From IMG/VR virus record IMGVR_UViG_2925891887_000001: DNA of 64,000 nt, one strand, 5' to 3'. The stretch's first letter is position 1, and each line of letters opens with the position of its first letter. Source of the stretch: a virus (lineage: Duplodnaviria; Heunggongvirae; Uroviricota; Caudoviricetes). Shown here piece after piece: positions 10,740-62,344 of the stretch. The notes beneath the pieces are model-generated. The model did no database searches. It had not been told where the DNA came from and worked only from the letters and a program-made list of their open reading frames with translations. The translations under genes were made by a program, and so were the position numbers.

Positions 10740-10760
10740 TAAGTAACAAAAGGAATTTTT

Positions 10761-11648: not shown

Positions 11649-11673
11649 CATCTAAATCAAAGGGAATTGATAG

Positions 11674-12549
11674 ATGCCATTACTGCGTGAAGAAGCTGAA
11701 AAGCTGTCTAACAACGAACTTGAACAGGGTGTGATCGAAACTATCATCGATCGCGATGACCTGTTTGCCATCCTGCCTTTTATGAAAATTAATTCAAAGG
11801 CATATCTGTACAACCGTGAAAAAACGCTGAGCGAAGCTACTTTCATTGATGTGAACGACACCATCACCGAAGGTGCAGCAACCTTCGAAGAGAAAGTTGC
11901 GAAGCTGCGCATTCTGGCTGGCGACGTTGACGTCGACAAATTCCTGGCTACCACTATGGCTGATACCAACAACCAGCTGGCTATCCAGGTTCGTCAGAAA
12001 GTCAAAGGTCTGGCTCGTGCCTTCCGTCGCAATCTGATTGTTGGCGACTCCACCACTAACAACAAGGCGTTTGACGGCATTCCACGCCTGATGCACGCAG
12101 ATCAGAAGATCGATATCGCCGGTGCATCTATGACTTTCTCCATGTTCGACGAACTGGTCGATGCGGTGAAAGATCTTGGTGCTGACTGCATCATGATGCG
12201 TTCAGAGCACCTGCGTGCTTACCGTGCGCTGCTGCGTACAGTAAACGTAGGTCCGTCTGAAATCATGATGGAGAACTTCGGTCGTCCGATGCTGTGCCAT
12301 AACGACGTTCCGTTTATCGTAAACGACTTCATTCCGACCGATGCTGGCAAAGCAAGCATCTACTGCCTGCATCTGTCAGAAGAGAACGGCGTTACTGGTC
12401 TGTATGGCGGCGACAACGCAGGTATCGTTGTTGAAAACATTGGTACTGTACAGAACAAAGACGCAGTACGTACCCGTGTGAAGTGGTACTGCTCTCTGGC
12501 GAATAAGCACGATAAGGCTATCGCTGCACTGACCAATGTAAAAATTTAA
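11674..12549 (+). CDS. Major capsid protein
   Basis: 291-aa protein after scaffold, followed by a strong intrinsic terminator. Confidence 0.65.
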   Translation: MPLLREEAEKLSNNELEQGVIETIIDRDDLFAILPFMKINSKAYLYNREKTLSEATFIDVNDTITEGAATFEEKVAKLRILAGDVDVDKFLATTMADTNNQLAIQVRQKVKGLARAFRRNLIVGDSTTNNKAFDGIPRLMHADQKIDIAGASMTFSMFDELVDAVKDLGADCIMMRSEHLRAYRALLRTVNVGPSEIMMENFGRPMLCHNDVPFIVNDFIPTDAGKASIYCLHLSEENGVTGLYGGDNAGIVVENIGTVQNKDAVRTRVKWYCSLANKHDKAIAALTNVKI

Positions 12550-12583
12550 TCAGTGTTGTAGATAAGTAATTATCTATGTTTAA

Positions 12584-12609
12584 GGGTGGGCTATACGCCC
12601 ACCCTTTTT
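12584..12609 (+). terminator. Rho-independent terminator after capsid gene
   Basis: gggtgggc-tata-gcccaccc stem-loop followed by TTTTT. Confidence 0.75.
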
Positions 12610-12622
12610 GTAGGAGCAAGAA

Positions 12623-13543
12623 ATGCCAGAACAAAAGATGAAGATTACGGAAGAGGCATTTTCGGATTTTACGGGGCATATGTGCCGCGCCGGATTTACC
12701 AATTCTATCTCCGATGAACCTTTAACCGAGCGGCAACAAAGTCAGCTATCTGCTTGTTTGCAGGCGGTTCCCTTCTCCCAATCCGTAAACATAACTCCGG
12801 CTTCACCATCAGTTTTGGTTGGGAAAACTGTTCAACTTAGTGCAGGTATTAGTATGGGTAAGAGTGCCAGTTCATTTACCTGGAAGTCAGCCAATGATCA
12901 AATTGCAACCGTTAACGGCACTGGATTAGTAACTGGCGTAGCCCCAGGCAAAGTGAAAATTACCGCAACTGATCAGGAAACCCAGCTTTCCGCGTCAGTG
13001 GAAGTCACCGTAAATCCGGTAGCCGTTAAATCCGTAACGGTAACGCCAGACTCAACCTCTGTTGAGAAAGGGAAATCAGTCAGTCTGAAAGCGAATGTTC
13101 AGCCGTCAAATGCGACGAATAAGGCAGTTACCTGGTCTTCCAAAAATGAAGACAAGGCAACGGTAGACCAGAGCGGGAACGTTACTGGTGTAGAAGTTGG
13201 CACTGCGACGATTGAGATCGTTTCCCAAGATGGCAGCAAAAAGGCAACTGCAACGGTGGAAGTAACTGCGCCTGTTGTGGCTGTTACCGGCGTCGAAATC
13301 GACCCAAATAGCACAACCGTTGAGGCAAACAAAACTGTTCAGCTGACCGCAAATGTCGAGCCGGCAGGAGCCACAAATAAAACCGTTACTTGGGAATCCA
13401 AAAATACCGAGTTTGCAACGGTGGACAGCGAAACCGGTGTTGTAACTGGTGTTGCGGCTGGTACTGCCACAATCGAGGTTACTACCCAAGATGGTAGCCA
13501 CAAAGCGACAGCGACCGTAGAGGTCACTGCCGCACAGGAATAA
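12623..13543 (+). CDS. Ig-like (Big_2) repeat protein, probable head decoration protein
   Basis: Three tandem Big_2-like units (VTWSSKNEDKATVDQSGNVTGV...; VTWESKNTEFATVDSETGVVTGV...); position after capsid gene. Confidence 0.6.
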   Translation: MPEQKMKITEEAFSDFTGHMCRAGFTNSISDEPLTERQQSQLSACLQAVPFSQSVNITPASPSVLVGKTVQLSAGISMGKSASSFTWKSANDQIATVNGTGLVTGVAPGKVKITATDQETQLSASVEVTVNPVAVKSVTVTPDSTSVEKGKSVSLKANVQPSNATNKAVTWSSKNEDKATVDQSGNVTGVEVGTATIEIVSQDGSKKATATVEVTAPVVAVTGVEIDPNSTTVEANKTVQLTANVEPAGATNKTVTWESKNTEFATVDSETGVVTGVAAGTATIEVTTQDGSHKATATVEVTAAQE

Positions 13544-13587
13544 CCGATATTGGGCGGCGAAAGCCGCCCAAGAGGAGAGAAAGCGTT

Positions 13588-14022
13588 ATGAAACCAGCAA
13601 AAATTGTTTTATTAGAACCGCAATTTTCCGGTTATTCGGGAATGCTGTGTGGCGTTCAGTTCGAGAACGGGGTATCCGTAGCGGAGTTGCCTTTTATCGA
13701 TCAGCAAAGGATTTGTGCCTCAATGCGAGCATCAACAGTCGAGGGCAAAAATGTTTCTCCGTCTGCCGCATACAGTGATCGTGGCGAGTTGACCGCAGAC
13801 CTGATTACCGAGCCAGCAGCACCTGGCATTGTGCCAATGAAACGTGGGACACCAGATGAACCGGCCAAACAGATCCAGACTTTCACACGAGAAGAGTTGG
13901 AGTCAATTGCAGACAATGAAGGCATTGCCGGTCTACGTGTGATTGGTAATCAGGTTGGTGTCAAAGCGAAAGGAATTGTCGAGATGATTGAAGGCATCCT
14001 GAAAGCACAAGGCGGTGAGTAA
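13588..14022 (+). CDS. Hypothetical head/connector protein
   Basis: 144-aa ORF in head-tail joining region. Confidence 0.4.
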   Translation: MKPAKIVLLEPQFSGYSGMLCGVQFENGVSVAELPFIDQQRICASMRASTVEGKNVSPSAAYSDRGELTADLITEPAAPGIVPMKRGTPDEPAKQIQTFTREELESIADNEGIAGLRVIGNQVGVKAKGIVEMIEGILKAQGGE

Positions 14023-14855
14023 TGGCGCAGATCGACTCGTATCGTAGCGGTGAAGCTGTTTCCCTTTCATTTGCCTTCAACGTGCTGGATATCGAATCTG
14101 CTACCTACACAGTAAAGGACAGCACCGGGGCTATTCTCGTTGATGGCGAGCCGCTAGAAATTACCAGCGGTCAAATGTCGATTCCGGTTGTCGTGTCGGC
14201 TGAATATAACCAGCTCTCTGAGAAAGAGCGAGATCTGCGGTACGTCATTGTGAAGGCTGTTGCATCGGGTCTGACGCATGAAGAGCGGCAAATGTATGTT
14301 CTGCTGAATAGTTTTGAACTGTCGATACCAGAACAGTCGTTTGCAACTGTCGCTGATGCTCAAATGCAGGCGATCGATATGCTGAATGGGGACACTTTGC
14401 TGTCGGATGGTGAAGGCTTAATGCGCAAGCGTCTCATTGAGGCTACCAGACGAATTAAAACTTTACCGTTCTCAATCCGCAAAATTCTACGTATCGACTT
14501 TGACCGATACGATCGCCCTCAAAATATGCTGAATGTGTATGACATTCCGTGGGGAGCAGATGGAGCGTACCGGCATGATTTAGTCGATTGGGAAAAGATG
14601 ACGCAGGAGAAGTTTGAAGAGTTCCCTGACTACTTCAAAGAAGCGTTGATGCTTGCCGTTGTCAACGAAGCGTGTGAGATCGCAAATGGCAATGATGTAG
14701 CCGCAGCACGAGAGGATGGCATTTTGTCAGAGTCCATCGGTGAAACAACCAACATGTACCGTACCGGTAAAGCTGCAAACGTGCATGTGGCTCGTAGTAC
14801 CTGGCGCTTGCTGGTCAGTTACATCAACAACCGTATGATTGTTCGCCGTGCGTAA
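14022..14855 (+). CDS. Hypothetical head-tail connector protein
   Basis: 277-aa ORF with start overlapping upstream stop. Confidence 0.4.
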   Translation: MAQIDSYRSGEAVSLSFAFNVLDIESATYTVKDSTGAILVDGEPLEITSGQMSIPVVVSAEYNQLSEKERDLRYVIVKAVASGLTHEERQMYVLLNSFELSIPEQSFATVADAQMQAIDMLNGDTLLSDGEGLMRKRLIEATRRIKTLPFSIRKILRIDFDRYDRPQNMLNVYDIPWGADGAYRHDLVDWEKMTQEKFEEFPDYFKEALMLAVVNEACEIANGNDVAAAREDGILSESIGETTNMYRTGKAANVHVARSTWRLLVSYINNRMIVRRA

Positions 14856-17686: not shown

Positions 17687-20600
17687 ATGTCACAAAACGT
17701 AGAGTTTATCCTGTCGCTGGAAGACAAACAGTTTACAGCGTCAATCGATCGTGCGGGGAAACTGCTTACTCGATTTGGTGAGCAGGTAACAAAGCCTGCT
17801 CAAAAAATCCAAACCTTTGAACGCTCTTTGGGTTCGGTCGCCCGTATCATTGGCGTTCTGGAAAGCAAGCTCGATTCTACGGCAGATAAACTACAGGATG
17901 TAGCTGCCGGTTTTGAGCTTGCTTCAGATGCTACGCGTAAAATGCGTGGCAACATCACCAGCCTCAATTCTGGTCTTAAAGCCCTGATTGAGCGCGTCGA
18001 TACGACAACTTCTTCAGTAGATAAACTCACCGCGTCATTACGTAAAGTGCAATCAGAGCTAAATGATTTCTCTGATTGGGCGACCTATGCAAGCAAAAGC
18101 GCAAGCCGCTTTGGTACGGAGGTCAAAGAAGCCTCTGCGTCCGTGAGTGGCATGAATACGCGCCTTAATACCACGACGAAGCGACTCAGTAATTGGGGTG
18201 TCTCAACGAGTCAGGCTGCCGAGGGACTGAAAAAGGTTCGTGAGCAGATGGACGAAGTTATCGGACGTCAGCAACTGATTAGCAAGCCGGTACGCGTTCG
18301 TACATCTGGAGGTAGCGATGGTGGCAGCGGGCGGCGTAGCGGCTCTGGCCATAGCGGTAAAAGTAACGAAGGAGGTATGTTCTCTGGCCTTCGTGGCAAC
18401 ATTTTCCTGCTTGGCGAGATCGGAGATGCAGCCAGAACGGTTACTGACATCATGTTTGGGTGGCAGAAGCCTATTGTTGAAGCTGCGGCCGAAATGGAAC
18501 GTATGCGGGTGATGCTTCGAGGGTTGAATAAGGAGAAGTCCAACCCGGGCCAGGCTGCCGCTGATGATATGAAGTACATCGTAGACATGGCTCAAAATGC
18601 GCCGTTCGCGATGCAGGCGTTAACAGACTCCTTCGTGAAGTTTCGTTCTGCTGGCTTAGATCCAACCGATGGTTCTCTGAAGGCGCTGGTGGACTCCGTT
18701 GCTCGTTTTGGTGGTGATAGTGAGCTGTTGAAACGTGCGGCTGTGGCCGTTCAGCAGATGTCCGGTAAGGGCGTTGTGTCAATGGAAGAGCTACGTCAGC
18801 AATTAGGTGAAGCCGTTCCTAACGCGATGCAGGCAATGGCAGACGCCGCAGGCATCACTATGGGGGAACTGACTAAAGCCGTTGCCAGCGGTACGGTTGA
18901 GGCAAAACAGGCGTTGTCTCTGATGTTTGTTGGTCTGCGTGCGGAGAATGAGAACGCAGCGAAAGACATGATGCAAACCTACACAGGTGCGCTGGCGCAA
19001 CTTCAGACGTCATTCACGTTATTTGCTGATCGGGTTGGTCAGGCCGGATATCTGGATTCTCTATCGAAGGGGATGAAAGAACTGGCTTCAATCATGAATA
19101 GCGCCGAAGGGATTTCGTTTGCCAATTCTTTAGGTTCGGGGTTAACAACGGCAATCGATGGGTTGCGTCAGCTTGCTCAATGGTTAGCAAAGAACCAAGA
19201 GCTGGTAATTAATCTCGGTAAGGTCGTGGCCGCGATGGTTGCGTTCAAACTGATGCGAGCAGGGATCATGGGGGTAGTTGGCGCTGGGAGCCAGATGGTT
19301 AGCACCTTTGCCACGATGGCGACCGCCATACAGACTCCATTTAACCTCGGCGCTACAGCAGTAACTCGATTCAATCGTGCGGCACGTATGGGGCTGGCTC
19401 CGATCCCCTCTCTTATTTTCGCCATCCGTGGGGCGATTACGGGGCTTAAAGGCGCTTTTGCTGGATTAACGGCGTTCATTGCAGCAAACCCTATAGGGGC
19501 AGCATTTACAGTTGCCACAGTAGCTGTTGCTGGCCTAATCACGTACATGACCATGCTCCGCAGCGAAACTTCAAAGGTCGTTGACGAGATTAGGAAAATA
19601 CCAGAGGCGATGACGGCGGCCAAACGTGCACAGATGGCGGAGTATAAAGCGCGTCTTGAGCAACAAATCACGCAAAAGGAACAAGAGTTAAAATCTGGCG
19701 AAAAGGTGGTTTATGGGCCGGGTATGGCCGGAACTACAGTAAAGATTAATCAGGATGAACGTAAGCGTATAGAAAATGAGCTAAATGACCTTCGTGAGAA
19801 ACGCGATAAAACTACTGGGGCAATTGAACGCGGAGACACTGCTGTAGCCAAACGTCTTGCAAAAGATGCGGCAGAATCACAGATAGAGAAAATACGGGAA
19901 GAGAATAGAGACTTTGCGGCAACATTCGCTAAAGCTCGTCAAGAGGCTCTGGATAAGATCCAGAAAATCAATGATGACGGTTCACTTTCAGATGACGAAA
20001 AGAACAAGCTATTGGCACCGTTACGTGAAACGGTAAACAAAAGCTATCTGGAGCCTGCGCAAAAACTGGTTGATTCACTTTCTTCTCGTAAGAATGCGAC
20101 CGAGAAGCAAATTGCGACTCTTAATGATCAGCTTGAAAAAGCCAAAAAGGATGGAAATACCGAGCAGATCCAGAAACTGCAAGGCAGTATTCGTGGTTAT
20201 CAGGAGCATTTGGAAGCCGTTGCTCAGGAGCTGACTCAGGCAGAGTTCGAGAGAGATAACGCGGCCAAAACTGGTAAGGGCGTAATGTCAAACCAGGGGA
20301 CTGTTCTTGGGTTAGGTACAACTGATAAAGCTGCTCAGAAGGCGCTGGCGCAATATATGCGAAACCAGATGGATTCTGCGACTTATCAGCGTACTTTGCC
20401 TGACGGCACTCCGATGATGGACTTCGAAGGTAAGCCGATTATTGGGCCTAAACAACTCAAGACGCAGCTTAATTTGCAGAAAGCATCCAGCGCCAGCTCT
20501 CTGGAGAAAATGAGCGATGAAGAGCGTGCCGCAGCCATTGCTGCACTGACTAAAGCTCGTGAACAGGATGCCGCAGCCGCCGAGAAAGCAGCCCAACGAT

Positions 20601-22261
20601 CAGCTAACGCCTCGCAGCGTGCGGCCAAGAAGGAACAGGCAGCGCAACAGAAACTGGCAGCCGGATACCAGAAGGCTCTGGACAAAGCCGATCAGCTTAT
20701 GGGGCAAATGGGTGAAAGCTCTAAGGCTACGGTATCGTTTGATCAGTCTCTTCGCGATACAACGAAATCGCTGACAGATTTGGCTAATGCGGTTCCTAAC
20801 GAGTTCATCACTCAAGAGATGATCGACAAGGCGAAAAAACGTCTTGAAGACCTCAAAAATGCGACACCTGAATATCGCGAGATGTTTAATCGCCGCAATG
20901 TTGAGCAGATGATCTCCACCTGGGCACCGGAGGCGGATTCCATTATTAGTGCTGGCTATACGCCGTCTCGCGAAGAGAAAGTTGCTGATTTCGAAGACAC
21001 CTACAACCGCAATCTCAAAGCGTTGATAGAACTTCGTGATAAGGCGTCTGATCCTAAAGTTGTGGCGCTTTATACAAAGAAAATCAATCAACTGATTGCT
21101 GCTGGCAATACCGCGCTTATTAAAGAGACGGGGACTGCGACGCAGAAGTTGGCACTGGAATACGAAAACCTGGCAGAGCAGATCGAAAGCACCTGGACTG
21201 ATTTGTTTAGTGGCTTAACTGATGTCCTGACTGATTTCGTTATTAACGGGAAGATGAGCTTCTCCAGCCTATCTCAGTCCATTTTGAAAGATATCACCAA
21301 TATGGTCGTGAAGTCGCAAATCACGCTGCCTCTAATGAACATGTTGGGGATGGGAACCACCGCAGCTGGTAGTTCACAGAGTGGCAATTTGCTCACTGGA
21401 GTTGCTTCTGCCGTTGCCAATCAAGGTGTACGAATGGGCAACACTGTTAATGGCGACAAGTCGGTAGGAGAAGCCACGAAGGAGACGTCCAGTTCGGTAA
21501 CTGGATTGGGGCAAACAACACAGCAGACCACCAGCGCAATTGGCACAGCAACAAATGCGATTGGTAGCTGGGTATCGGGGCTATTTGATAGCACCGAAGC
21601 CAAAGATGCTGAGACAAAAGCAGTGAAGGACTCCATCTTCTCGATGCAGAACCTCAGCTCTGTTACCGGCGCTCTGTCTGCCGCGTTTGCAATGCTTGGA
21701 GCTAATGCTTCCGGCTCTGGTAATAAGTGGTTGAATTTCGGCGCGACAGTTGCATCTGGTTTGGTTTCAGTATGGGCTGGTGGTGGATTCGATGGATTGA
21801 TGTCCGGTTCTTCTGGCTCAACTTCCGGGTTCAACAATCTGACCAGTTCTGCTGCCGATGGCACGAATGGTATTCCTGCAATTCCGAAGTTTGCAAATGG
21901 TGGCATATTCGGAAAAGACGGCGTGATCCCGCTCCGGGCATACCAGAAAGGCGGTATCGCCAACTCACCTCAATTGGCGTTGTTTGGGGAAGGCGATATG
22001 AATGAGGCGTATGTTCCATTGCCTGATGGCCGAACAATCCCTGTAACGCTCAGTACCGATGGTATGAGTGGAGGCGGAAATGTTCTTTCTCCTGTATCAA
22101 TTGAGATCAACGTCCATAGTGACGGTAGCACGACAGAATCCGGCGATACAGAAAGCATATGGAACAATGCCGCTCAACGGATGAAAGCAATCGCGCTTGA
22201 GACTATCGCTCAAGAGAAACGCCCTGGCGGATCACTCAACCCAAACACTCAACGTAACTAA
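17687..22261 (+). CDS. Tape measure protein
   Basis: About 1525 aa, coiled-coil rich, hydrophobic Gly/Ala segments; track start 17666 is TTG, ATG at 17687 has a better RBS. Confidence 0.85.
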   Translation: MSQNVEFILSLEDKQFTASIDRAGKLLTRFGEQVTKPAQKIQTFERSLGSVARIIGVLESKLDSTADKLQDVAAGFELASDATRKMRGNITSLNSGLKALIERVDTTTSSVDKLTASLRKVQSELNDFSDWATYASKSASRFGTEVKEASASVSGMNTRLNTTTKRLSNWGVSTSQAAEGLKKVREQMDEVIGRQQLISKPVRVRTSGGSDGGSGRRSGSGHSGKSNEGGMFSGLRGNIFLLGEIGDAARTVTDIMFGWQKPIVEAAAEMERMRVMLRGLNKEKSNPGQAAADDMKYIVDMAQNAPFAMQALTDSFVKFRSAGLDPTDGSLKALVDSVARFGGDSELLKRAAVAVQQMSGKGVVSMEELRQQLGEAVPNAMQAMADAAGITMGELTKAVASGTVEAKQALSLMFVGLRAENENAAKDMMQTYTGALAQLQTSFTLFADRVGQAGYLDSLSKGMKELASIMNSAEGISFANSLGSGLTTAIDGLRQLAQWLAKNQELVINLGKVVAAMVAFKLMRAGIMGVVGAGSQMVSTFATMATAIQTPFNLGATAVTRFNRAARMGLAPIPSLIFAIRGAITGLKGAFAGLTAFIAANPIGAAFTVATVAVAGLITYMTMLRSETSKVVDEIRKIPEAMTAAKRAQMAEYKARLEQQITQKEQELKSGEKVVYGPGMAGTTVKINQDERKRIENELNDLREKRDKTTGAIERGDTAVAKRLAKDAAESQIEKIREENRDFAATFAKARQEALDKIQKINDDGSLSDDEKNKLLAPLRETVNKSYLEPAQKLVDSLSSRKNATEKQIATLNDQLEKAKKDGNTEQIQKLQGSIRGYQEHLEAVAQELTQAEFERDNAAKTGKGVMSNQGTVLGLGTTDKAAQKALAQYMRNQMDSATYQRTLPDGTPMMDFEGKPIIGPKQLKTQLNLQKASSASSLEKMSDEERAAAIAALTKAREQDAAAAEKAAQRSANASQRAAKKEQAAQQKLAAGYQKALDKADQLMGQMGESSKATVSFDQSLRDTTKSLTDLANAVPNEFITQEMIDKAKKRLEDLKNATPEYREMFNRRNVEQMISTWAPEADSIISAGYTPSREEKVADFEDTYNRNLKALIELRDKASDPKVVALYTKKINQLIAAGNTALIKETGTATQKLALEYENLAEQIESTWTDLFSGLTDVLTDFVINGKMSFSSLSQSILKDITNMVVKSQITLPLMNMLGMGTTAAGSSQSGNLLTGVASAVANQGVRMGNTVNGDKSVGEATKETSSSVTGLGQTTQQTTSAIGTATNAIGSWVSGLFDSTEAKDAETKAVKDSIFSMQNLSSVTGALSAAFAMLGANASGSGNKWLNFGATVASGLVSVWAGGGFDGLMSGSSGSTSGFNNLTSSAADGTNGIPAIPKFANGGIFGKDGVIPLRAYQKGGIANSPQLALFGEGDMNEAYVPLPDGRTIPVTLSTDGMSGGGNVLSPVSIEINVHSDGSTTESGDTESIWNNAAQRMKAIALETIAQEKRPGGSLNPNTQRN

Positions 22262-22459
22262 CTATCGACTGCCCCGACCGGGGCAGTCTCACAAGGATGT
22301 GAGATGGAAAGACAAACGTTTAATTGGTATCCAGATTACGAATCTGAAAAGAGCGTAAAACCGAATGTAACGGTACTTAATTTTGGTGATGACTACGAGC
22401 AGCGACAGGCTCAAGGTCTTAATCGTATTAAAGAAGAATGGTCGGGTAATGACTCCAAC

Positions 22460-22963
22460 TTATTGATAGTGTTTTATGTTCAGATAATGCCCGATGACTT
22501 TGTCATGCAGCTCCACCGATTTTGAGAACGACAGCGACTTCCGTCCCAGCCGTGCCAGGTGCTGCCTCAGATTCAGGTTATGCCGCTCAATTCGCTGCGT
22601 ATATCGCTTGCTGATTACGTGCAGCTTTCCCTTCAGGCGGGATTCATACAGCGGCCAGCCATCCGTCATCCATATCACCACGTCAAAGGGTGACAGCAGG
22701 CTCATAAGACGCCCCAGCGTCGCCATAGTGCGTTCACCGAATACGTGCGCAACAACCGTCTTCCGGAGCCTGTCATACGCGTAAAACAGCCAGCGCTGGC
22801 GCGATTTAGCCCCGACATAGCCCCACTGTTCGTCCATTTCCGCGCAGACGATGACGTCACTGCCCGGCTGTATGCGCGAGGTTACCGACTGCGGCCTGAG
22901 TTTTTTAAGTGACGTAAAATCGTGTTGAGGCCAACGCCCATAATGCGGGCAGTTGCCCGGCAT
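22460..22963 (-). CDS. insB: IS1 InsB (transposase C-terminal ORF)
   Basis: 167-aa translation ...[36 protein letters not shown]... recognised as IS1 InsB. Confidence 0.95.
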
Positions 22964-23157
22964 CCAACGCCATTCATGGCCATATCAATGATTTTCTGGT
23001 GCGTACCGGGTTGAGAAGCGGTGTAAGTGAACTGCAGTTGCCATGTTTTACGGCAGTGAGAGCAGAGATAGCGCTGATGTCCGGCGGTGCTTTTGCCGTT
23101 ACGCACCACCCCGTCAGTAGCTGAACAGGAGGGACAGCTGATAGAAACAGAAGCCAC
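22882..23157 (-). CDS. insA: IS1 InsA
   Basis: 91-aa translation [43 protein letters not shown]... recognised as IS1 InsA. Confidence 0.95.
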
Positions 23158-23498
23158 TGGAGCACCTCAAAAACACCATCATACACTAAATCAGTAAGTT
23201 GGCAGCATCACCGAATGGTCGTTAACCTTTACCAGATCATACAACGAAATTAATGCAATCGATGACTTCCTGACTGAGCGAGCAGGCGTTGAGTCGTTCT
23301 ATTGGGTTAATCCAAGAGGAAAACGGATTGTAGTTGTATGTGACAGTCATACGGTCAAGCGATATCAGGGGTACTGTGTCTTAACTGCTACATTCAGACA
23401 AGTATTTGAGGCTTAAGTATCTGGATAAGTAAGTACTAATTTACTATCATTGTGGCGCTGACAGGATGTTAGCGCCTACTTATTTCAAGGATGAAACA

Positions 23499-24197
23499 AT
23501 GGGAATTAAAGCTGATATTCAGAGCTTATCTCCCTCTGCACTCATTGAGTTGTTCGTACTGGATATGTCGAACACAACTTCAGGGGGGAAGTTATTCTTC
23601 CACGCCGGAACAAACGAACTGATGCAACCTGTCGTCTGGCAAGGAGTGACATACGAGCCGTGGCCAATCAAAGCATCAGGCTTTGACAAAACTGGCCAGG
23701 GAACGTTGCCACGTCCAAAAATTCAGGTATCGAACTTTGCCGGAACCGTCTCTGCGGAAGTTCAGGCGAACGACGATCTTGTTGGCTGCCGCATTATTCG
23801 CAAGATGACGCTGGCTCGCTTCCTCGATGCCGTTAATTTTAAAGACGGCAACCCAACAGCAGATCCAAACCAACATTTCCCGGATGAAATGTGGTTTATC
23901 GAACAGAAAACGCTCGAAACTCATCAGGTTGTCGAGTTTGAGTTGTCCAGTGTGTTCGATTTGATGGGGGTGCAACTGCCGTATCGTCAGATCATTAAAA
24001 ACACCTGCCCGTGGAAATACCGAGGGCCAGAATGCGGCTATACCGGTCCATATTTCGACAAAAATAACCAGCAGACGTCTATGTCTGGTGCTGATTACTG
24101 CACAAAACGTTATGACGCCTGTAATGCGCGTCGGAATTATTTTGCCAACGGAGTGATCCATTTTGGCGGGTTTATTGGAGCTACGCGATATGGGTAA
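23499..24197 (+). CDS. Minor tail protein L (lambda gpL-like)
   Basis: Clear gpL-like segments (KMTLARFLDAVNF; NTCPWKYRGPECGYTGP; FGGFIG); ATG after AAGGA; track ORF begins 23466. Confidence 0.9.
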   Translation: MGIKADIQSLSPSALIELFVLDMSNTTSGGKLFFHAGTNELMQPVVWQGVTYEPWPIKASGFDKTGQGTLPRPKIQVSNFAGTVSAEVQANDDLVGCRIIRKMTLARFLDAVNFKDGNPTADPNQHFPDEMWFIEQKTLETHQVVEFELSSVFDLMGVQLPYRQIIKNTCPWKYRGPECGYTGPYFDKNNQQTSMSGADYCTKRYDACNARRNYFANGVIHFGGFIGATRYG

Positions 24198-24987
24198 TAA
24201 AGCAATCCCTGAGCTTGGCTCTGATGTTATGCAGCAAATCTATCTCTGCGCCATAAATCGCTACCCTAATGAAGCGTGTGGCTTTCTGGTGAGAACTAAT
24301 GGCGACAAATATCGCTTTATGGAAGCGCGAAATGTTTCGGAGAACCCGCAGAACACTTTTGTAATGCACGTTGACGACATTATAGCGGCAGAGGATGCAG
24401 GTGACGTAATCGCAATCTGGCATTCACATACTGATGAATCAGCAGAAGCATCTGATGCCGATCGTGCAGGCTGTGAAGCGACGGAAGTTCCGTGGATGAT
24501 TCTGGCTATTCGCAAGAATGTTGAGGGAGATGCCCCTTTCCATTTTAGCGAGATGAATGTGATCACACCTGATGGTTTCGAAATGCCATACCTGGGTAGA
24601 CCGTATGTATTTGGCGTATTCGATTGCTGGATGTTGTGTCGGGACTATTTGAAGCGTGAGTTTAACGTCGAGCTTAACCCGAACGCACACCTGCATATTC
24701 CATCGTGGTACACCGGCGATAACGACATTCTCGACCAGAACTACCGAAACGAAGGGTTGGTACGGCTTGCGCCTGGAACAGAGCCTCAACGTGGGGACGT
24801 CTTCTTTATTCAATACGGGAAAATGCCAGATCACTGCGCGGTTTATATCGGCGATGGAATGATTCTTCATCACCAGATCGACCGTCTTAGTTGTCGTGCT
24901 TATTACGGCGGAATGTATCAGAAACATACGACGCATCACTTGCGTCACAGAGACTTGCTCAAGGGAGATGAGACGTGTCTGAGTTAG
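24163..24987 (+). CDS. Tail assembly protein K (MPN/JAMM + NlpC/P60 domains)
   Basis: JAMM motif IWHSHTDESAEASD and C-terminal NlpC/P60-like Cys/His region; start may be 24190 or later. Confidence 0.85.
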   Translation: MAGLLELRDMGNKAIPELGSDVMQQIYLCAINRYPNEACGFLVRTNGDKYRFMEARNVSENPQNTFVMHVDDIIAAEDAGDVIAIWHSHTDESAEASDADRAGCEATEVPWMILAIRKNVEGDAPFHFSEMNVITPDGFEMPYLGRPYVFGVFDCWMLCRDYLKREFNVELNPNAHLHIPSWYTGDNDILDQNYRNEGLVRLAPGTEPQRGDVFFIQYGKMPDHCAVYIGDGMILHHQIDRLSCRAYYGGMYQKHTTHHLRHRDLLKGDETCLS

Positions 24988-25568
24988 TTCATGTGCAGCT
25001 TGGCGGACCTATGGCTAAACATTTTGGTCGCCACTGGCATCTAAAGGTGCGCAATACAAAACAGGCTCTGGATTTAATTGAAGCCAACAAGCCTGGGTTT
25101 AAAGCATGGATGAAGCGCAATATCAAAACCTATGACAGTTACCACATCCAGATCACCAATAAACAGGGCCACAAGTGGTCTGTTGACGAAAGTGAATATC
25201 AGATGATGGGGCAGTCTGACAACATTGCCAAAATCCGCATTACACCTGTTCCGCGAGGAAGCGGTGGATCTGCTTTTGGGTGGTTTCAGACGGTAGTAGG
25301 GGCCGCTTTGTTGGTTGTATCGGCGGTAGTGATGCCTGCTTTAGCACCTCTCGGTTTGTCACTGATGATGGGCGGCATATCACAAATCATATCGCCGCAA
25401 GCCACTAACGAAAGTGTGAGACAGGCAGATAACTCGAACTCTTATTATTTCGACGGCCCTCAAAATACAGAAAACCAGGGCAACCCAGTACAACTTATCT
25501 ATGGCGAGGAAATTCTGGTTGGCTCACAGGTTGTGAGTTCTTCAATCACGATTGACCAGCTAATGTAA
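24975..25568 (+). CDS. Tail assembly protein I (lambda gpI-like)
   Basis: Position between K and J; C-terminal hydrophobic segment (FGWFQTVVGAALLVVSAVVMPALAPLGLSLMMGG). Confidence 0.75.
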   Translation: MSELVHVQLGGPMAKHFGRHWHLKVRNTKQALDLIEANKPGFKAWMKRNIKTYDSYHIQITNKQGHKWSVDESEYQMMGQSDNIAKIRITPVPRGSGGSAFGWFQTVVGAALLVVSAVVMPALAPLGLSLMMGGISQIISPQATNESVRQADNSNSYYFDGPQNTENQGNPVQLIYGEEILVGSQVVSSSITIDQLM

Positions 25569-25585: not shown

Positions 25586-28500
25586 ATGGAACAGTTCAAG
25601 AAGAAAAAGCTACCGCTGTTTATTGCCGGTGCGGGTGGTAAAAAAAGCAGCAAAAGCTCTAGTCGTACACCGGTTGAAGCCGACGATACCGTAAATTCTC
25701 GTGCAATGGCCGCTATCCTCGATCTTCTTGGGGAAGGGGTAATTGGCGGCTTAGTAAATGGCGCAAGATCTATTTTTATCGACGATCTGCCGATTGTAAA
25801 TGAAGACGGTTCCTCCAACTTCAGCGGAATCACATGGGATTTTCGCGACGGTTCACAAGACCAGACTCCAATGTCTGGCTTTGATTTCGTTGAAACGCCT
25901 AAATCCGTCAATATCCAGTTAAAAAAAACACATTATGTAACGGTTTCAATCGATAACGATGAAGCTGATCGGGTTCGTGTCATCATGAAGTTTCCTTCTT
26001 TGCGAAGCATAGATAAAAAAACTGGTGACACGAACGGTACGACTGTTGAGTACAAGTTCCAGATAGCAAATGGCGACTCAACATTTGTAGATGTGGTCGC
26101 GGAAGGTGAAAAAAGCGTTGGCATTAAGCTAACAGCAAAGAAGACCGGCGTTTATTACCGTAGCTACGAGCTGAAGCTGCCTAAGCCTGGACGCGCATAC
26201 AAGGTTCGTGTAGTCCGTATTACCGATGATAACAGTAGCCAGTATCTCTATAACGATACATGGGTGGATTCAATCGGGGAAATTGTCGATACACCGATGA
26301 ACTATCCAAACTCTGTTTTGGTTGGATTGAAGGTAAACTCTGAGCAATTCGGCAGCACCATGCCATCTCGCTCTTATCTGGTGCGTGGCCTAAAAATTCG
26401 AGTACCTTCAAACTATAACGAGTCCAGTAACACTTACGCTGGGGTATGGGATGGCACTTTTAAGCTGTTGTCTTCTTCGAACCCCGCGTGGATTCTCTTT
26501 GATTTGCTGACCAATGCTCGATATGGCCTTGGTCAGTATGTGTCGGAATCTATGATTGACCTTGGCCAGTTGTACCAGATTGGTCGATATTGTGACGAAG
26601 AGGTCGATGATGGCTTTGGTGGCAAAGAGAAACGCTTTGCAATCAATACGCAGATCACCAGTCGACAGGACGCATACCGGCTAATTCAGGATATTGCCGG
26701 AGCATTCCGCGGCATGGTGTTTTGGGCTGGTGGGATGGTTAACATCATGCAGGATAGCCCATCAGATCCGGTAATGATGTTTACCAACTCTAACGTCAAA
26801 GATGGATTGTTTACCTATAAAGGTTCTGCGCGTAAAGATCGCCCATCCGTTGCGCTCGTAACCTACAACAACAAGGAGGACGGTTATAAGCAAAACATCG
26901 AGTACGTCGAAGATCAGGACGCAATGCGCCGTTATGGTGAGCGTAAAACAGAAGTCGTAGCATTTGGCTGTACAAGCCGAGGGCAGGCTCACCGAGTTGG
27001 TTTGTGGCTTTTATATACCGCCAGAATGGAGTCGGATGTAATTACATTTACTGCCGGCTTAGACGCGTCATTTCTGATGCCTGGTGAAACCGTTCTGATT
27101 CAGAACAAATATCGCGCAGGCAAACGTAACTCAGGTCGAATTGTGGCGTTTACCAAAAACAGCGTCACACTCGATGCGCCTGTGTCGTTAGCCAAAGGCG
27201 GCTGCTTTATTCGAATACTGAATCAGGAAGGCAAAATCGTTGAACGCGATGTTCTTGAAACTGGCGAAAATATAACAAAAGTTACGTTTTCAAAAGCCCT
27301 GTCTTCGGCTGAAACGCCTGTTTTGAACGGCGTCTGGACTATTACAGAACCAGACCTCGAACCTATGCGCGTTCGCATCGTTAACATCGCGCAGGGGGAA
27401 ACGCCGGGTAGCTTTGACATCACCGCTGTTGAGAACAATCCGTCTAAATATGAGGCAATCGACAATGGTGCAACGCTGATCCCACAGAATACGACGGTAT
27501 TGGACCCAACTTACTCCAAGCCATCTAATCTGCAAATCACTGAAGGGACTTATCTCTCAAGCCCGGGCAACCTGTCAGTAAAACTGACTGCAACATGGGA
27601 AGGGAAATCTCCAGAGTATTGGATCAGTTGGCGACGTTCTGATGAAAACAATGTATCGAACTGGCAATCGGCGCGTGTAACCGAAGAGCAATACGAAATC
27701 GTTAATGTCGCGGAGAATGGACGCTACGACTTCCAGCTGTATGCGGTTTCATTCAACGGTAAAAAAACAGAGATTATCAGTACCGTTTATCAGGTGTTGG
27801 GCACAATGACACCGCCGGATGCCCCAACGTCATTAACGGCCGTTGGAGACTATCGTAATGTGATACTGAATTGGGTTAATCCAGATTCGGTAGACCTTGA
27901 TCACATTAATGTTTACGCATCCCAGACCAACAATCTGGATACGGCGAAACTGATCGCAGAGTCTGCAAGCACCACCTTTACACATGCTGGTCTTGGGGAT
28001 AGCGAAACGTGGTATTACTGGGTTCGAGCATCGAACAAGCGAGGTATGTTAAGTCCTCCGAACTCAAACTTGGGTACAGAGGCGACAACTCGCGATGTAC
28101 TGTCGTTCCTGACTGGCAAAATTACATCTTCCGAGCTTGGTCAGGCTCTGCTTGAGGACATCAACAGCAAAGCCTCTCAAGAAGCAGTTGACGAGTTAAA
28201 TGAGCATATCAACCAGAGCGTCGAATCTTTGGAGGGGGCGGTAAACGACGTTAAGGAAGATATAGCTGAATTAGATAAGCAGTTCAGCGATAACCTCGCG
28301 GATTTTGAAATAAAATTCAACGAGCGTAGCGATGCTTTGGAGAACGCACAAACCGAGCTTAAAGGTGAGGTTTCGGCAACGATCGACAAGGTCAATGAAG
28401 CGTTTGAAAAAATTGATGCTACTGATGCTGCAATTGTTGAAATCGAAAACACCGTATCTGAACACGATAAAGCTCTCGCTAATACAGTCGAGGCAATAAA

Positions 28501-30313
28501 GGCTGCAAGAGATGAAGCGGCGGCTCTTATTGCTAAGGAAAGCGAGGCTCGTGTTGAAGGCGATGCTGCAAACGCTAAACAACTGGAAGTGTTGCAGTCA
28601 ACGGTAGAGGAAAGCTCCGCTGCCGTTGAAGAAATGAAAAAGACGGTTGCAGAGGTCGATCGTGCCAGTGCAGAACTGACTACGAACATTGAAGCGTTAG
28701 CTAAAACAAATATTGACCTGGCTCTTCGTCAAGATGAAGACCAGCACAAGCAGATGGTCAATAACGCGAAGATCGCAACAACACAGAAAACCTTTGCTGA
28801 TGATATGTCCGCAATGGCCACGAAGGTTGAGGAAATTCGCGTAGAAATTGGCGAAGACATTAAGGCCAGTATTCTGGAAGAGTCCACCGCTCGTGCCGAT
28901 GGCGATGAAGCGTTGGCAAAGCGTGTCACTCAGCTGCAATCTAAGTTTGAAGGAGATATCAGCGCGGCGATTAGTACAGAGCAGGAGGCTCGTACATCTG
29001 CCGATGAAGCTCTGACGACACAAATCACTCAGCTTGAGTCGAAAGTAAGCAACGATATCGTCGCAGCTATTAAGGAAGAGCAAGAAGCCCGAGCAACGGA
29101 AGATTCGGCTCTGGCAAGCCAGATCACCCAACTTCAGGCAAAAGTTGATGATGATATTTCTGCTGCAATACGCAGTGAGCAGGAGGCCCGAGCAAGCGGG
29201 GACTCTGCGTTAGCCAAACAAATAAACCAGCTTCAGTCAAAGGTTGACGGTGATATATCCGCTGCCATCACTCAGGAGCAGGAGGCCAGAGCAAGTGCTG
29301 ACCAGGCGCTCTCACGAGAAATTAACAGCCTGCGAGCACAAACCGGAACTGATATTGCCGCAGCGGTTGCTGTAGAGACAAAAGCAAGGACTGATGCCGA
29401 TAGTGCATTGTCTACCCAGATTACGTCTCTTACAGCAAAAGCTAATGATCTCAAGGCGTCTCTTGCCAGAGAAACAACGGCTCGTGCAGATGGTGATACC
29501 GCTTTAACAAAAGAGGTTTCAAGTTTAAAAGCACAGACAGCGAAAGATATTAGTGCGGCCGTTGCAGTTGAAACGCAGGCTCGAACTGATGCTGACTCGG
29601 CGTTGTCGTCTCAGATCACCAAGCTGACCTCTCAATACAAAGAGGATATTAAAGCGGCTGTAGCAACCGAAACGAAAACGCGTACAGAGCAAGATGCTGC
29701 ATTGGCGACTCAAATCACAAACTTAGAGTCTCAAACGGCAGCCAACATTTCCGCGGCGGTCACAACTGAAACGAAAGCGAGAACGCAGGCAGATAATGCT
29801 CTGAGTGGGCGAATCGATACTCTGAAAGCAGAGGTGAATGGAAATACCGCGACAATTCAACAGCAGGCAACAGCTATTGCTGATACCAACAAAAAAGTGT
29901 CAACCGCGTGGACGTTGAAAATGGAGACTTCAACGAGCGGAGGGCAGAAGTATGTTGCCGGTATTGCGCTTGGTATTGACACCACTGGGCTATCTCAGTT
30001 TTTGGTTCAGGCGGACAGGTTTGGTTTGGTCAACTCTGTTAACGGGAAGATCACAACGCCATTTGTTATCGAAAACAGTATCGCCTATATGAATGGAGCG
30101 TATATCAAGGATGGCACAATCACCAATGCAAAAGTAGGCGATCTGCAATCTACCAATTTTGTTAGCGGTAGATCTGGATGGCGGTTCGGCAAAAATGGAA
30201 CGCTTGAGATCAACGGTAATAGCGGCGGCAATGGGCGATTGGTTATAAATGGTCAGCGGATTGACGTTTATGACGATAACAACGTCCTACGAGTAAGAAT
30301 TGGCCGTCTGTGA
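25586..30313 (+). CDS. Tail tip / host specificity protein J (central fibre)
   Basis: gpJ-like N-terminus (GGKKSSKSSSRTPVEADDTVNSRAMAAILDLLGEGVIGG), FN3-like region, then about 9-10 tandem 33-aa repeats; track start 25580 is TTG, ATG at 25586. Confidence 0.9.
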   Translation: MEQFKKKKLPLFIAGAGGKKSSKSSSRTPVEADDTVNSRAMAAILDLLGEGVIGGLVNGARSIFIDDLPIVNEDGSSNFSGITWDFRDGSQDQTPMSGFDFVETPKSVNIQLKKTHYVTVSIDNDEADRVRVIMKFPSLRSIDKKTGDTNGTTVEYKFQIANGDSTFVDVVAEGEKSVGIKLTAKKTGVYYRSYELKLPKPGRAYKVRVVRITDDNSSQYLYNDTWVDSIGEIVDTPMNYPNSVLVGLKVNSEQFGSTMPSRSYLVRGLKIRVPSNYNESSNTYAGVWDGTFKLLSSSNPAWILFDLLTNARYGLGQYVSESMIDLGQLYQIGRYCDEEVDDGFGGKEKRFAINTQITSRQDAYRLIQDIAGAFRGMVFWAGGMVNIMQDSPSDPVMMFTNSNVKDGLFTYKGSARKDRPSVALVTYNNKEDGYKQNIEYVEDQDAMRRYGERKTEVVAFGCTSRGQAHRVGLWLLYTARMESDVITFTAGLDASFLMPGETVLIQNKYRAGKRNSGRIVAFTKNSVTLDAPVSLAKGGCFIRILNQEGKIVERDVLETGENITKVTFSKALSSAETPVLNGVWTITEPDLEPMRVRIVNIAQGETPGSFDITAVENNPSKYEAIDNGATLIPQNTTVLDPTYSKPSNLQITEGTYLSSPGNLSVKLTATWEGKSPEYWISWRRSDENNVSNWQSARVTEEQYEIVNVAENGRYDFQLYAVSFNGKKTEIISTVYQVLGTMTPPDAPTSLTAVGDYRNVILNWVNPDSVDLDHINVYASQTNNLDTAKLIAESASTTFTHAGLGDSETWYYWVRASNKRGMLSPPNSNLGTEATTRDVLSFLTGKITSSELGQALLEDINSKASQEAVDELNEHINQSVESLEGAVNDVKEDIAELDKQFSDNLADFEIKFNERSDALENAQTELKGEVSATIDKVNEAFEKIDATDAAIVEIENTVSEHDKALANTVEAIKAARDEAAALIAKESEARVEGDAANAKQLEVLQSTVEESSAAVEEMKKTVAEVDRASAELTTNIEALAKTNIDLALRQDEDQHKQMVNNAKIATTQKTFADDMSAMATKVEEIRVEIGEDIKASILEESTARADGDEALAKRVTQLQSKFEGDISAAISTEQEARTSADEALTTQITQLESKVSNDIVAAIKEEQEARATEDSALASQITQLQAKVDDDISAAIRSEQEARASGDSALAKQINQLQSKVDGDISAAITQEQEARASADQALSREINSLRAQTGTDIAAAVAVETKARTDADSALSTQITSLTAKANDLKASLARETTARADGDTALTKEVSSLKAQTAKDISAAVAVETQARTDADSALSSQITKLTSQYKEDIKAAVATETKTRTEQDAALATQITNLESQTAANISAAVTTETKARTQADNALSGRIDTLKAEVNGNTATIQQQATAIADTNKKVSTAWTLKMETSTSGGQKYVAGIALGIDTTGLSQFLVQADRFGLVNSVNGKITTPFVIENSIAYMNGAYIKDGTITNAKVGDLQSTNFVSGRSGWRFGKNGTLEINGNSGGNGRLVINGQRIDVYDDNNVLRVRIGRL
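28870..29830 (+). repeat. Tandem 99-bp (33-aa) coding repeats inside gene J
   Basis: Repeated unit DISAAIxxEQEARxxADxALxxQITQLxSKVxx, about 9-10 copies. Confidence 0.8.
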
Positions 30314-30406: not shown

Positions 30407-33400
30407 ATGTGGTACAGGGAAGGTACTATCACATTTACACAGGGCAGCAATACTCTGGTTGGGGCAGGGACAGCCTGGAACGTAACAGCTAATGGTGTGT
30501 TGCCGGGGATGATCGTCATTGGCCCCGACAATAAGCTGTATGAGATCAAGCGCGTAACCAGTGATACGAACATTGTTCTCTCAGAACCTTATACCGGCGA
30601 AACTCAGTCTGAAGTTCCGTGCCGAATCATTACGACCTATGAAGGCGACTTAACACAGTTTAGCGCGCGCTTTACTGCGCTAATGTCGCGTATGTCGGCT
30701 GATTCCAAGTCCATACGCAGTTGGTTGACTGCGCTGGATGAGGTGACAATCGAGCGTGAAGACGGTACAGAAGTGACCGTTAAGCCGCTAATGCAGATCG
30801 TCAACGAGCACAACGAAAACGTTGAGTGGTATAAAAATAACACTGACGCGATTGATGCTGCTGGCGACAAAGCTCGTGAGGCGGCGGCCAGTGCTGCCGC
30901 AGCAGCAAAAAGCGCCAATGCCGCTGGAGAAAAAGCCTCTCAAGCGTCTCAAAGTGCATCCGCTGCGGCATCCTCACAAAGTGCCGCAAGTGCGAGTGCA
31001 ACTGCTGCGAAAAAATCTGAAACGAATGCTGCAGCGTCACAAAAATCTGCAGCCACTTCTGCATCCACCGCGACCACGAAGGCGTCAGAAGCTGCCACCT
31101 CAGCCCGGGATGCGGCGGCCTCAAAAGAGGCAGCGAAATCATCAGAAACGAGCGCAGCCTCGAGCGCCAGTAATGCCGCTTCCTCGGCAACGGCGGCAGG
31201 AAATTCCGCGAAGGCGGCAAAAACGTCCGAGACGAACGCCAGGTCTTCTGAAACGGCAGCGGGACAGAGCGCCTCGGCTGCGGCAGGCTCAAAAACAGCG
31301 GCTGCGTCGTCTGCCAGTGCCGCGTCAACAAGTGCCGGGCAGGCCTCAGCCAGTGCCACCGCCGCCGGAAAATCGGCAGAAAGTGCCGCATCGTCTGCTT
31401 CAACTGCCACAACGAAGGCTGGCCAAGCCACTGAACAGGCCAGCGCAGCAGCGAGGTCTGCTTCCGCAGCGAAGACATCCGAAACGAACGCGAAAGCGTC
31501 GGAAACCCGTGCAGAATCCTCAAAAACGGCAGCCGCATCGTCCGCCAGTTCGGCGGCGTCATCGGCATCATCGGCGTCTGCTTCAAAAGATGAGGCGACC
31601 AGACAGGCGTCAGCAGCGAAGGGCAGCGCCACGACGGCATCCACGAAAGCAACAGAGGCGGCAGGCAGTGCGACGGCAGCATCTCAGAGCAAAACTGCTG
31701 CTGAATCCGCTGCGACCCGTGCGGAAGCTGCTGCTGATCGTGCTGAAGAGATTGCCGGTGCAGTTGCGATGGAAGACGCAAGCCTTACAACTAAAGGTGT
31801 TGTGAAACTTAGCAGTGCTGTCGACAGCACCAGTGAATCGCTGGCCGCAACGCCAAAAGCAGTTAAAGCAGCCAATGACAATGCGAATAGCAGGGTGCCA
31901 TCTAACCGAAAAGTTAACGGTAAAGCACTGACTGCGGATATCAAATTAACGCCGAAAGATATTGGTACTTTAAATTCAGTAACGATGTCTTTCTCTGGCG
32001 GGGCAGGGTGGTTCAAACTGGCTACGGTTACCATGCCACAAGCGAGTTCCATCGTTTACATCGCATTGATTGGTGGCGCTGGTTACAACGTCGGCTCCCC
32101 ACATCAGGCAGGCATTTCAGAACTGGTTCTACGAGCAGGCAATGGAAACCCCAAAGGGATTACAGGTGCTTTGTGGAAGCGTACAGCTGTCGGATTAACG
32201 AATTTCGCCTGGATCAACACATCCGGCGATACATATGATATTTACGTTGAGATTGGCAATTATGCGACTCGTGTAAATATCCATTGGGATTGTACTGCAA
32301 ATGCGACAGTTTCTATTTATACCTCGCCAACATATTCAGCGAGTAAGCCTTCCAGCGTTACCGATGGTGTTGTTTATACGATGTATAGCACACATCAGAA
32401 ACCGACGCCGTTAGATATTGGAGCACTGCCAACAACCGGAGGAACAGTTTCAGGTCCGTTGTCTGTTACAGGTGGATTAACTGGTTCATTGAATGGTAAT
32501 GCAAGTACAGCCACGAAATTGCAGACGGCAAGATCTATCGGTGGAGTTGTTTTCGACGGTTCTGCAAATATTAACCTTCCAGGTGTAAACACTACGGGTA
32601 ATCAGAACACCACTGGTAATGCTGCAACTGCTACAAAACTTCAGACTGCAAGAAAAATATCCGGTGTTCCATTTGATGGTTCTACTGATATCACTTTAAC
32701 CGCTGCGCATGTTGCCGCTTTCGCAAGAAGGGCAACAGGGTCATATGCGGATGCTGATGGTGGCGTGCCGTGGAATGCTGAATCTGGTGCTTACAATGTA
32801 ACTAGAACAGGCGACACCTATATTCTTGCCAACTTTTATACCGGTGTAGGTAGTTGCCGGACCCTGCAGATGAAGGCGCATTACAGAAATGGAGGTCTGT
32901 TCTACCGTTCCTCAAGAGATGGCTATGGTTTTGAAAGTGGTTGGGAGCAGGTTTACACGACTGGATTTATGCCTCAGCCGGCTGATATAAACGCGCCAAC
33001 CGCTGCCGCTGGATGGTTAAATAGTGGTAACGGAACGGCATTTACGACTGCTCAATTTATAACTTGGCTAAATAATCAGGGGGCATTTACAAACAAACAT
33101 TGGATCGCACGGTGCTCATGGACTTACGCCAACAATAATTATATAGACGACACTGGTTGCGGTAGGATCGATCTATCTGGTTCCGTGATTGAGGTGTTTA
33201 GTAATAAGGCAACAAGCCACTACACTATTCGTGTTACAACGACAACAACATCGGGTCATGGTGGTGTTAACAATGCGGAATTTATTTATGTGTACAATGG
33301 AAGTGATTATGCACCAGGCTGGCGTCGTTCTTATAACACTAGAAACAAACCAACAGCTTCTGATGTAGGAGCATTACCGCTTTCAGGTGGCACATTATCT

Positions 33401-35635: not shown

Positions 35636-35869
35636 ATGATGAAAAGATTATTTCTAACAATAGCTGTTGTTCTCTCTCTTACTGGCTGCCAGAAATTGCC
35701 GACACCTATATGTTACGGTGAGGCTATCATTGGTGGACAGGAGACAGTCATACCCATATATGCTGTTAAAAAAGTGAACGACTATACCTTATACAAAGCG
35801 GGTAGCATCTATAACTGGCGATGGGTAGGAGTAGGTGCTTTCTCATCAGTCCGTTGCAATGCTGAATGA
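35636..35869 (+). CDS. Small lipoprotein, Cor/Llp-like superinfection-exclusion candidate
   Basis: 77 aa; signal peptide plus lipobox (MMKRLFLTIAVVLSLTGC); sits just downstream of receptor-binding genes. Confidence 0.5.
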   Translation: MMKRLFLTIAVVLSLTGCQKLPTPICYGEAIIGGQETVIPIYAVKKVNDYTLYKAGSIYNWRWVGVGAFSSVRCNAE

Positions 35870-51527: not shown

Positions 51528-51602
51528 GATGGTGTAGCTCAGCGGTAGAGCAGTTGGCTGTTAACCAACTGGTCGGTGGTTCGAATCCACCCACCATCGC
51601 CA
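51528..51602 (+). tRNA. tRNA-Asn (anticodon GTT)
   Basis: Manual fold: acceptor gatggtg/caccatc, D-arm tagctcagcggtagagca, anticodon loop ctGTTaa, T-loop ggttcgaatcc, encoded CCA. Confidence 0.8.
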
Positions 51603-51607
51603 ATTTA

Positions 51608-51694
51608 GGGGAGTTAGTCCGTAGAGGTAGCGGTGTAGACTGTAAATCTACTGTCATGGCGACTCGGGTGGTTCGACTCCATCACTCCCCACCA
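51608..51694 (+). tRNA. tRNA-Tyr (anticodon GTA), long variable arm
   Basis: Acceptor ggggagt/actcccc, anticodon loop ctGTAaa, long variable arm, T-loop ttcgact, encoded CCA; D-arm pairing weak. Confidence 0.7.
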
Positions 51695-51698
51695 AATT

Positions 51699-62296: not shown

Positions 62297-62344
62297 GAAT
62301 TAATTTATAAGATAAGAAAACAATTTGTTTAGTGAGTCTTAGAA

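Follow-up and report, generated by a model that had tools for sequence, protein, structure and literature searches.

A complete IS1A-type element divides the gpM-like distal tail gene of p22AR0322A, an SSU5-group phage-plasmid of Escherichia coli

In phage lambda, gpM is the distal tail protein, a hexamer that fixes the tip of the tail to the tube, and its contacts with the tube and with J/L are specific (PMC10721106). The elements closest to the one described here are the E. coli phage-plasmids of the pSLy3 type, which belong to the SSU5 supergroup (PMC12977533) and for which a gene pair composed of DUF3927 and a tellurite/colicin-resistance gene is a named marker (PMC9600943). A relative, Cyrano, is inducible by ciprofloxacin and produces siphovirus particles with tails of ~259 nm, and its plasmid form is present at 5.5 copies per cell (PMC9928086). 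Since Cyrano has an intact M and makes particles, the SSU5-like family can be regarded as functional phage when M is intact. Some of the E. coli pSLy3-type phage-plasmids, 166F4 being an example, are not packaged, with no lesion or other cause reported (PMC9600943; PMC12977533), and loss-of-function mutation has been described as a way by which phage-plasmids turn into plasmids (PMC10879196; PMC12977533). SSU5-group plasmids differing only by the gain or loss of an IS have also been noted, in a surveillance preprint (10.1101/2025.09.12.675607). As to the insertion sequence concerned here, IS1A is the transpositionally dominant consensus copy of IS1, the A6C motif is the site of a programmed −1 frameshift, and the active IS1 transposase is 232 aa long (PMC12428005).

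The window, a stretch of 64,000 nucleotides from IMG/VR virus record IMGVR_UViG_2925891887_000001, is part of plasmid p22AR0322A (NZ_CP195468.1; 109,442 bp, circular) of E. coli 22AR0322, a strain isolated in New Zealand by human groin screening, on which a literature search found nothing. A 24.4-kb stretch of the window matches the plasmid at 100.0% in one piece. The plasmid genes include RepB, ParB-family genes, nrdAB, dnaE, a ligase, tRNAs, and dfrA51 (the last at record positions 96917-97393), together with a full siphovirus module (terminase, portal, capsid, TMP, and tail genes), which is intact throughout except for M. Over the TMP-M-L-K locus the identity is 98.5% to Cyrano/pLF82 (OV696614) and 78% to Salmonella phage SSU5, which places the replicon in the SSU5 supergroup. 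The DUF3927 and tellurite/colicin-resistance gene pair is present as well, and by its gene content p22AR0322A is probably of the E. coli pSLy3 type. It is one among hundreds of near-identical E. coli SSU5-group phage-plasmids.

Several other features of the plasmid were seen along the way. Four tRNA genes (Asn-GTT, Tyr-GTA, Thr-TGT, and Ser-TGA) are clustered at window positions 51528-52181. The dnaE gene for DNA polymerase III alpha (window about 59932-64000, record 9729-14041) is broken by a free-standing HNH endonuclease gene (~62344-63078), and PGAP calls the downstream part a pseudogene; dnaE may be a gene split by a homing endonuclease rather than one in decay. Just beyond the window there is a gene for a LAGLIDADG endonuclease. 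Also outside the window, at NZ_CP195468.1 83105-86477, the plasmid carries the chromosomal housekeeping genes metG and apbC beside a 75-bp IS1 transposase remnant, which implies that IS1 mediated a capture of chromosomal DNA at an earlier time.

The interruption of the tail module is laid out in Table 1. The block between the two 9-bp repeats is exactly 768 bp, and its terminal inverted repeats are imperfect, matching at 18 of 23 positions, with the ends GGTAATGACTCCAACTTATTGAT and GGTGATGCTGCCAACTTACTGAT. A degenerate pattern for IS1 ends has 2 matches in the 64-kb window, and these are the two ends of this element, where 0.01 would be expected by chance. Within or adjoining the left terminal repeat there is a promoter-like site on the minus strand (23205-23178). 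A −1 slip at the A6C motif would produce an InsAB' fusion of 232 aa, spanning 23157-22460 on the minus strand, in agreement with the active-transposase length given in PMC12428005. Aligned with IS1A of K-12, the element is identical at 766 of 768 positions, the two substitutions being at window positions 22769 and 22951. By its length, its ends, its insA/insB'/A6C organization, its 9-bp duplication, and its near-identity to the reference, this is a member of the IS1 family. The initial annotation had placed here a 768-bp IS1 with InsA/InsB and both terminal repeats, bounded by 9-bp direct repeats, and all of its coordinates are exact. In RefSeq, PGAP already marks both halves of the gene as pseudogenes, with an 'IS1-like element IS1A family transposase, programmed frameshift' between them.

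Table 1. Coordinates in the window of the IS1 element, the divided gene, and the neighboring tail genes
Feature	Position	Strand	Size or basis
Tape measure protein gene, immediately upstream of M	17687-22261	plus	Pfam TMP_3, Tape_meas_lam_C
gpM-like gene 5' fragment, codons 1-47	22304-22444	plus	PGAP pseudo 'phage tail protein, missing C-terminus'
Left copy of 9-bp target-site duplication GAATGGTCG	22436-22444
IS1 (IS1A type), complete, 768 bp	22445-23212	minus (transposase genes)	Ends, Pfam, K-12 IS1A identity, PGAP
Right IS1 terminal inverted repeat (insB'-distal end)	22445-22467		23 bp
insB' frame, DDE domain	22460-22963	minus	Pfam PF03400 (DDE_Tnp_IS1), E 2e-78
insA, 91 aa, zinc ribbon and HTH	22882-23157	minus	Pfam PF03811, PF12759 (Zn_ribbon_InsA, HTH_Tnp_IS1)
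A6C (AAAAAAC) programmed −1 frameshift motif	22900-22906	minus
Left IS1 terminal inverted repeat (insA-proximal end)	23190-23212		23 bp
Right copy of 9-bp target-site duplication GAATGGTCG	23213-23221
gpM-like gene 3' fragment, codons 48-111 and stop	23222-23416	plus	PGAP pseudo 'missing N-terminus'
L-like tail-tip gene	23499-24197	plus	Pfam Phage_tail_L; PGAP
K-like tail-tip gene (JAB and NlpC/P60)	24190-24987	plus	Pfam NLPC_P60, Prok-JAB; PGAP
I-like tail-tip gene	24975-25568	plus	PHROG, PGAP
J-like tail-tip gene	25586-30313	plus	PHROG, PGAP

Identical 9-mers at both flanks of the element would arise by chance with a probability of 3.8e-6. In 4 aligned relatives GAATGGTCG is found as a single copy, bordered exactly by the sequences of the left and right junctions of the window, so the empty site can be read directly. 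The perfect duplication indicates a true transposition, not a chimeric assembly. IS1 prefers AT-rich targets, and the site fits that preference, with a GC content of 28% within ±10 bp of the insertion point as compared to 46% window-wide. A composite transposon or an adjacent deletion was considered and rejected, as the alignment to the sibling plasmid described below omits only IS1 and one repeat; by the same match, no divergence, deletion, or inversion accompanied the insertion.

Joining 22304-22444 to 23222-23416, which removes IS1 and one repeat, gives an ORF of 336 nt and 111 aa, and the intact genes annotated in relatives have this length too. The rejoined ORF matches Pfam PF05939 (Phage_min_tail) at 120.6 bits, where the cutoff is 39 (E = 5e-35), with residues 4-109 aligned to profile positions 1-108 of 108, which is the full length. 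It matches phrog_14 'minor tail protein' among the PHROG families (E = 1.7e-36), and its match in the solved structures is 'Tail tip protein M' of lambda, 8iyk_M (E = 9.7e-10, 41.6 bits), query residues 4-107 aligning to residues 2-106 of the chain. Judged by these matches, the rejoined ORF clearly belongs to the gpM family. By sequence homology its product is predicted to have a tube-like beta-sandwich fold and would be expected to form a ring of six subunits that links tail tip and tube. The ~111-aa ORF with lambda gpM-like features that the initial annotation had predicted on removal of IS1 and one repeat is recovered, and the likeness to the gpM family on which its reading hinged is plain.

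As the gene stands in the window, the 5' fragment reads into IS1 for a product of 73 aa (47 native and 26 IS1-derived residues) that ends at 22525. The 3' fragment has no in-frame ATG, GTG, or TTG, and an in-frame stop lies just upstream of it, inside IS1. A compensating M paralogue on the plasmid was sought and rejected, since tblastn finds no second M-like sequence on the whole 109-kb plasmid. Classical lambda genetics has M as needed for tail assembly, and we infer from lambda that it is likewise essential for SSU5-like phages. The question is whether the protein might instead be dispensable here, or supplied in trans, for example by the M of a lambdoid prophage, so that infectious tailed particles are still made. 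Lambdoid prophages with M genes are indeed frequent on E. coli chromosomes, but the plasmid has no second copy of its own, and the M of lambda is so distant a relative (E = 1e-9; 41.6 bits, full-length) that cross-fitting into a heterologous J/L/tube interface is unlikely. The contacts of gpM with the tube and J/L are specific (PMC10721106). Of the 217 E. coli genomes with the gene, 216 have it uninterrupted, a pattern that points to purifying selection. We consider it very unlikely that M is either replaced or not needed.

The gene order tape measure-M-L-K-I-J is the lambda order by Pfam, PHROG, and PGAP, and the PHROG matches among the downstream tail-tip genes L-J include phrog_18, phrog_30, and phrog_32. 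IS1 is classically polar in both orientations, so the expression of L-K-I-J may drop as a consequence of the insertion. The spacer between M and L contains a terminator-like hairpin at 23454-23476 (a 10-bp stem and then a T-rich tail) and a promoter-like site at 23422-23450, in a region where neither class of site exceeds the level found in shuffled sequence. In the spacer between TMP and M there is a GC-rich hairpin at 22269-22286 (CTGCCCC-GACC-GGGGCAG) that has no T-tail. The hairpins in the two spacers bear on whether polarity from IS1 reaches L-J.

A second lesion in the tail module was suggested by a PGAP flag, 'missing N-terminus', on the tail-fibre gene downstream of J, and was rejected as an annotation artefact: the gene at 30407-34705 is an unbroken ORF of 1,432 aa with an ATG and a Shine-Dalgarno-like sequence. 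One relative has this region arranged differently, with a minus-strand ORF followed by a fibre of 1,184 aa, and the comparison suggests a fibre N-terminus that is variable or mosaic rather than decayed. Downstream of the tail fibre genes is a cor gene for the phage exclusion lipoprotein Cor (35636-35869). Cor in other phages blocks FhuA-dependent superinfection, and its presence hints at something about the receptor used by the SSU5-like phage-plasmid family.

How widely the insertion is shared can be asked with the junctions. Among 5,426 complete E. coli genomes, the left junction of IS1 with M is present at 100% identity in 1, on p22AR0322A itself. The same insertion is found neither in PLSDB nor in the phage collection, and exact searches with the 33-mer junction found nothing in 185,579 species-representative genomes (GTDB) or in JGI metagenome contigs. 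Used as a query, the reconstructed empty site is recovered almost in full from 216 complete E. coli genomes, where it lies on plasmids of ~100-120 kb; the search returned 219 matching records, of which 216 have a single stretch that spans at least 80% of the query and 3 do not. Two of these 3 are presumably the source, split by IS1, and a CRISPR match. M is likewise uninterrupted in phages Cyrano, PhiR41_1, and CMS-2020a. Among the collections searched, then, the insertion is private to one isolate, as far as the junction sequences tell. These searches bear out what the initial annotation had proposed about the surroundings of the insertion, namely that flank alignment would find M uninterrupted in related phages and that the element is a resident prophage or plasmid of an IS1-bearing enterobacterial host, which is now specified as an E. 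coli plasmid. Relatives sharing the insertion, which would have told against its reading, turned up in none of the plasmid, E. coli, phage, GTDB, or JGI sets.

The CRISPR match is a 32-nt spacer in a type I-E array by cas1e-cas2e in the bovine E. coli EC42405 (NZ_CP043414.1), and it is exact to the 3' part of M at window positions 23349-23380. In the window, GTC/TCA stands at the 5' flank of the protospacer where the canonical PAM would be AAG, and the length of the spacer unit is 60 nt, not 61. With a spacer matching M exactly, some E. coli evidently hold an immunity memory against the SSU5-like phage-plasmid family.

The age of the insertion is best judged from plasmid pCR-0543_1 (E. coli 205, urine, Houston), a sibling that is 100.0% identical over window positions 6000-30400, in two pieces omitting only the IS1 block. 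The comparison is by BLAST identity, alignments, and protein comparison. The protein accessions of the two plasmids agree across the module, to which the sibling adds an intact M (WP_000442112.1); the one accession that differs, for the gpI-like protein, translates identically. Identity at this level over 24.4 kb, with IS1 the only exception, indicates that the insertion is very recent. It could even be only a few generations old, and the question arises whether it came about in laboratory culture, or coexists with intact copies in a heteroplasmic state, with the phage-plasmid population of the strain still competent for virions. That the insertion is private to one isolate and that related plasmids are kept at ~5.5 copies per cell would suit such an account. 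In the other direction, the complete assembly gives the IS1 allele as the consensus, implying a majority or fixed form, the perfect target duplication speaks for transposition and not an assembly chimera, and no feature of the sequence dates the event to the laboratory. We regard this account as unlikely. It does leave a caveat for the phenotype, in that p22AR0322A is probably multicopy, as its relatives are (Cyrano at 5.5 per cell), and the assembly shows the consensus allele only, so that a minority of intact copies could complement in trans.

Two other plasmids with IS1, both matching at ~100% coverage, were considered as carriers of the same insertion and rejected. The AR_0104 plasmid has its IS1 in J, and the copy is of a different isoform, which makes it an independent event; in the JB2 plasmid M is intact, the IS1 being located outside the structural module. 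Elsewhere on p22AR0322A no donor IS1 is found, only the 75-bp transposase remnant, so the donor must be another replicon.

A further reading has the insertion selected, an adaptive domestication by which a useful plasmid (dfrA51, metG, apbC) was locked into a non-infectious form. The plasmid does carry dfrA51 and a captured metG-apbC pair beside an IS1 remnant, the decay of phage-plasmids into plasmids is a known path (PMC10879196; PMC12977533), and another family member has suffered its own IS1 insertion, of another isoform, in tail gene J. A knockout of the tail, however, leaves induction, replication, and lysis in place and so gives the host no protection; the allele is confined to one isolate; and 2 insertions among ~220 elements are what random landing of IS1 in AT-rich DNA would give. 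Selection for the insertion is thus quite improbable.

Our preferred reading is a simple insertion of an IS1A-type element into the gpM-like gene of the SSU5-group phage-plasmid p22AR0322A, very recent and private, which would leave the plasmid maintained without infectious virions; to this we give a probability of roughly 0.9. The IS1, a transpositionally competent copy, most likely came from the chromosome of E. coli 22AR0322 or from another of its replicons, and made a simple insertion at codon 47/48 of the gpM-like gene. The InsAB' DDE transposase makes a 9-bp staggered cut, here at the AT-rich target, and repair of the stagger left the perfect duplication of GAATGGTCG. M is now in two pieces, a 5' one that encodes 47 native residues with 26 residues from IS1 and a 3' one that has no start codon. 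On induction, we would expect replication, DNA packaging, and lysis to be kept and functional tails not to be assembled. Because the gpM ring joins the tip to the tube and there is no second copy of M, p22AR0322A probably replicates and partitions as a plasmid, with no tube-to-tip junction and no infectious virions. It would be passed on vertically only, as a plasmid having functions of the RepB and ParB type, and the insertion in M would be one small step in the already known conversion of a phage-plasmid into a plain plasmid. Unpackaged members such as 166F4 suggest that M may not be the sole determinant of activity in this group.

Precise excision of IS1 between its 9-bp repeats occurs at low frequency, so rare revertants could regain infectivity. 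Taken further, the IS1 might be viewed as a reversible off-switch, with excision restoring M, or filled heads lacking tails might be completed by the tails of a related co-resident siphophage. Either idea is far-fetched in our estimation; if true, a mainly plasmid-like carrier of dfrA51 would keep some horizontal mobility.

The event is routine in kind, an IS-generated pseudogene of a sort already known and already flagged by PGAP, although the M::IS1 allele itself is apparently undescribed in the searchable literature. Among P1-like elements the conversion of phage-plasmids to plasmids is already on record, and this instance has little significance beyond isolate 22AR0322. What it offers is a clean example of the first step from phage-plasmid to mere plasmid, and one that can be dated, because its flanks do not diverge at all from those of a sibling without the IS. 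In practice, typing tools based on gene content will still call p22AR0322A a phage-plasmid, though viral transfer has probably been lost. For the need for gpM in SSU5-like phages, p22AR0322A and pCR-0543_1 form a natural near-isogenic control pair.

Set beside the known systems, the element resembles IS1A/IS1E of K-12 in its 768 bp, its terminal repeats, its insA/insB' frames with A6C, its 232-aa InsAB', and its 9-bp duplication, and differs in two base substitutions and a new genomic location. The interrupted gene resembles lambda gpM (PDB 8iyk/8k35/8xcg; PF05939) in size, at 111 aa in the window and 109 aa in lambda with alignment over the full length, and in its position between the tape measure gene and L-K-I-J, but the sequence is distant (41.6 bits) and the window gene is split by IS1, with no full-length product. 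The AR_0104 plasmid unitig_6 (NZ_CP020118.1) is of the same phage-plasmid family and also has a tail gene split by IS1, but there the gene hit is J (tail tip/host specificity), not M, and the IS1 is of a clearly different isoform. As a replicon, p22AR0322A resembles Cyrano/pLF82 and other E. coli SSU5-group phage-plasmids, being a circular plasmid of ~110 kb with the same structural module; Cyrano, which forms inducible siphovirus particles, and 216 E. coli relatives have M uninterrupted, whereas in p22AR0322A IS1 lies in it.
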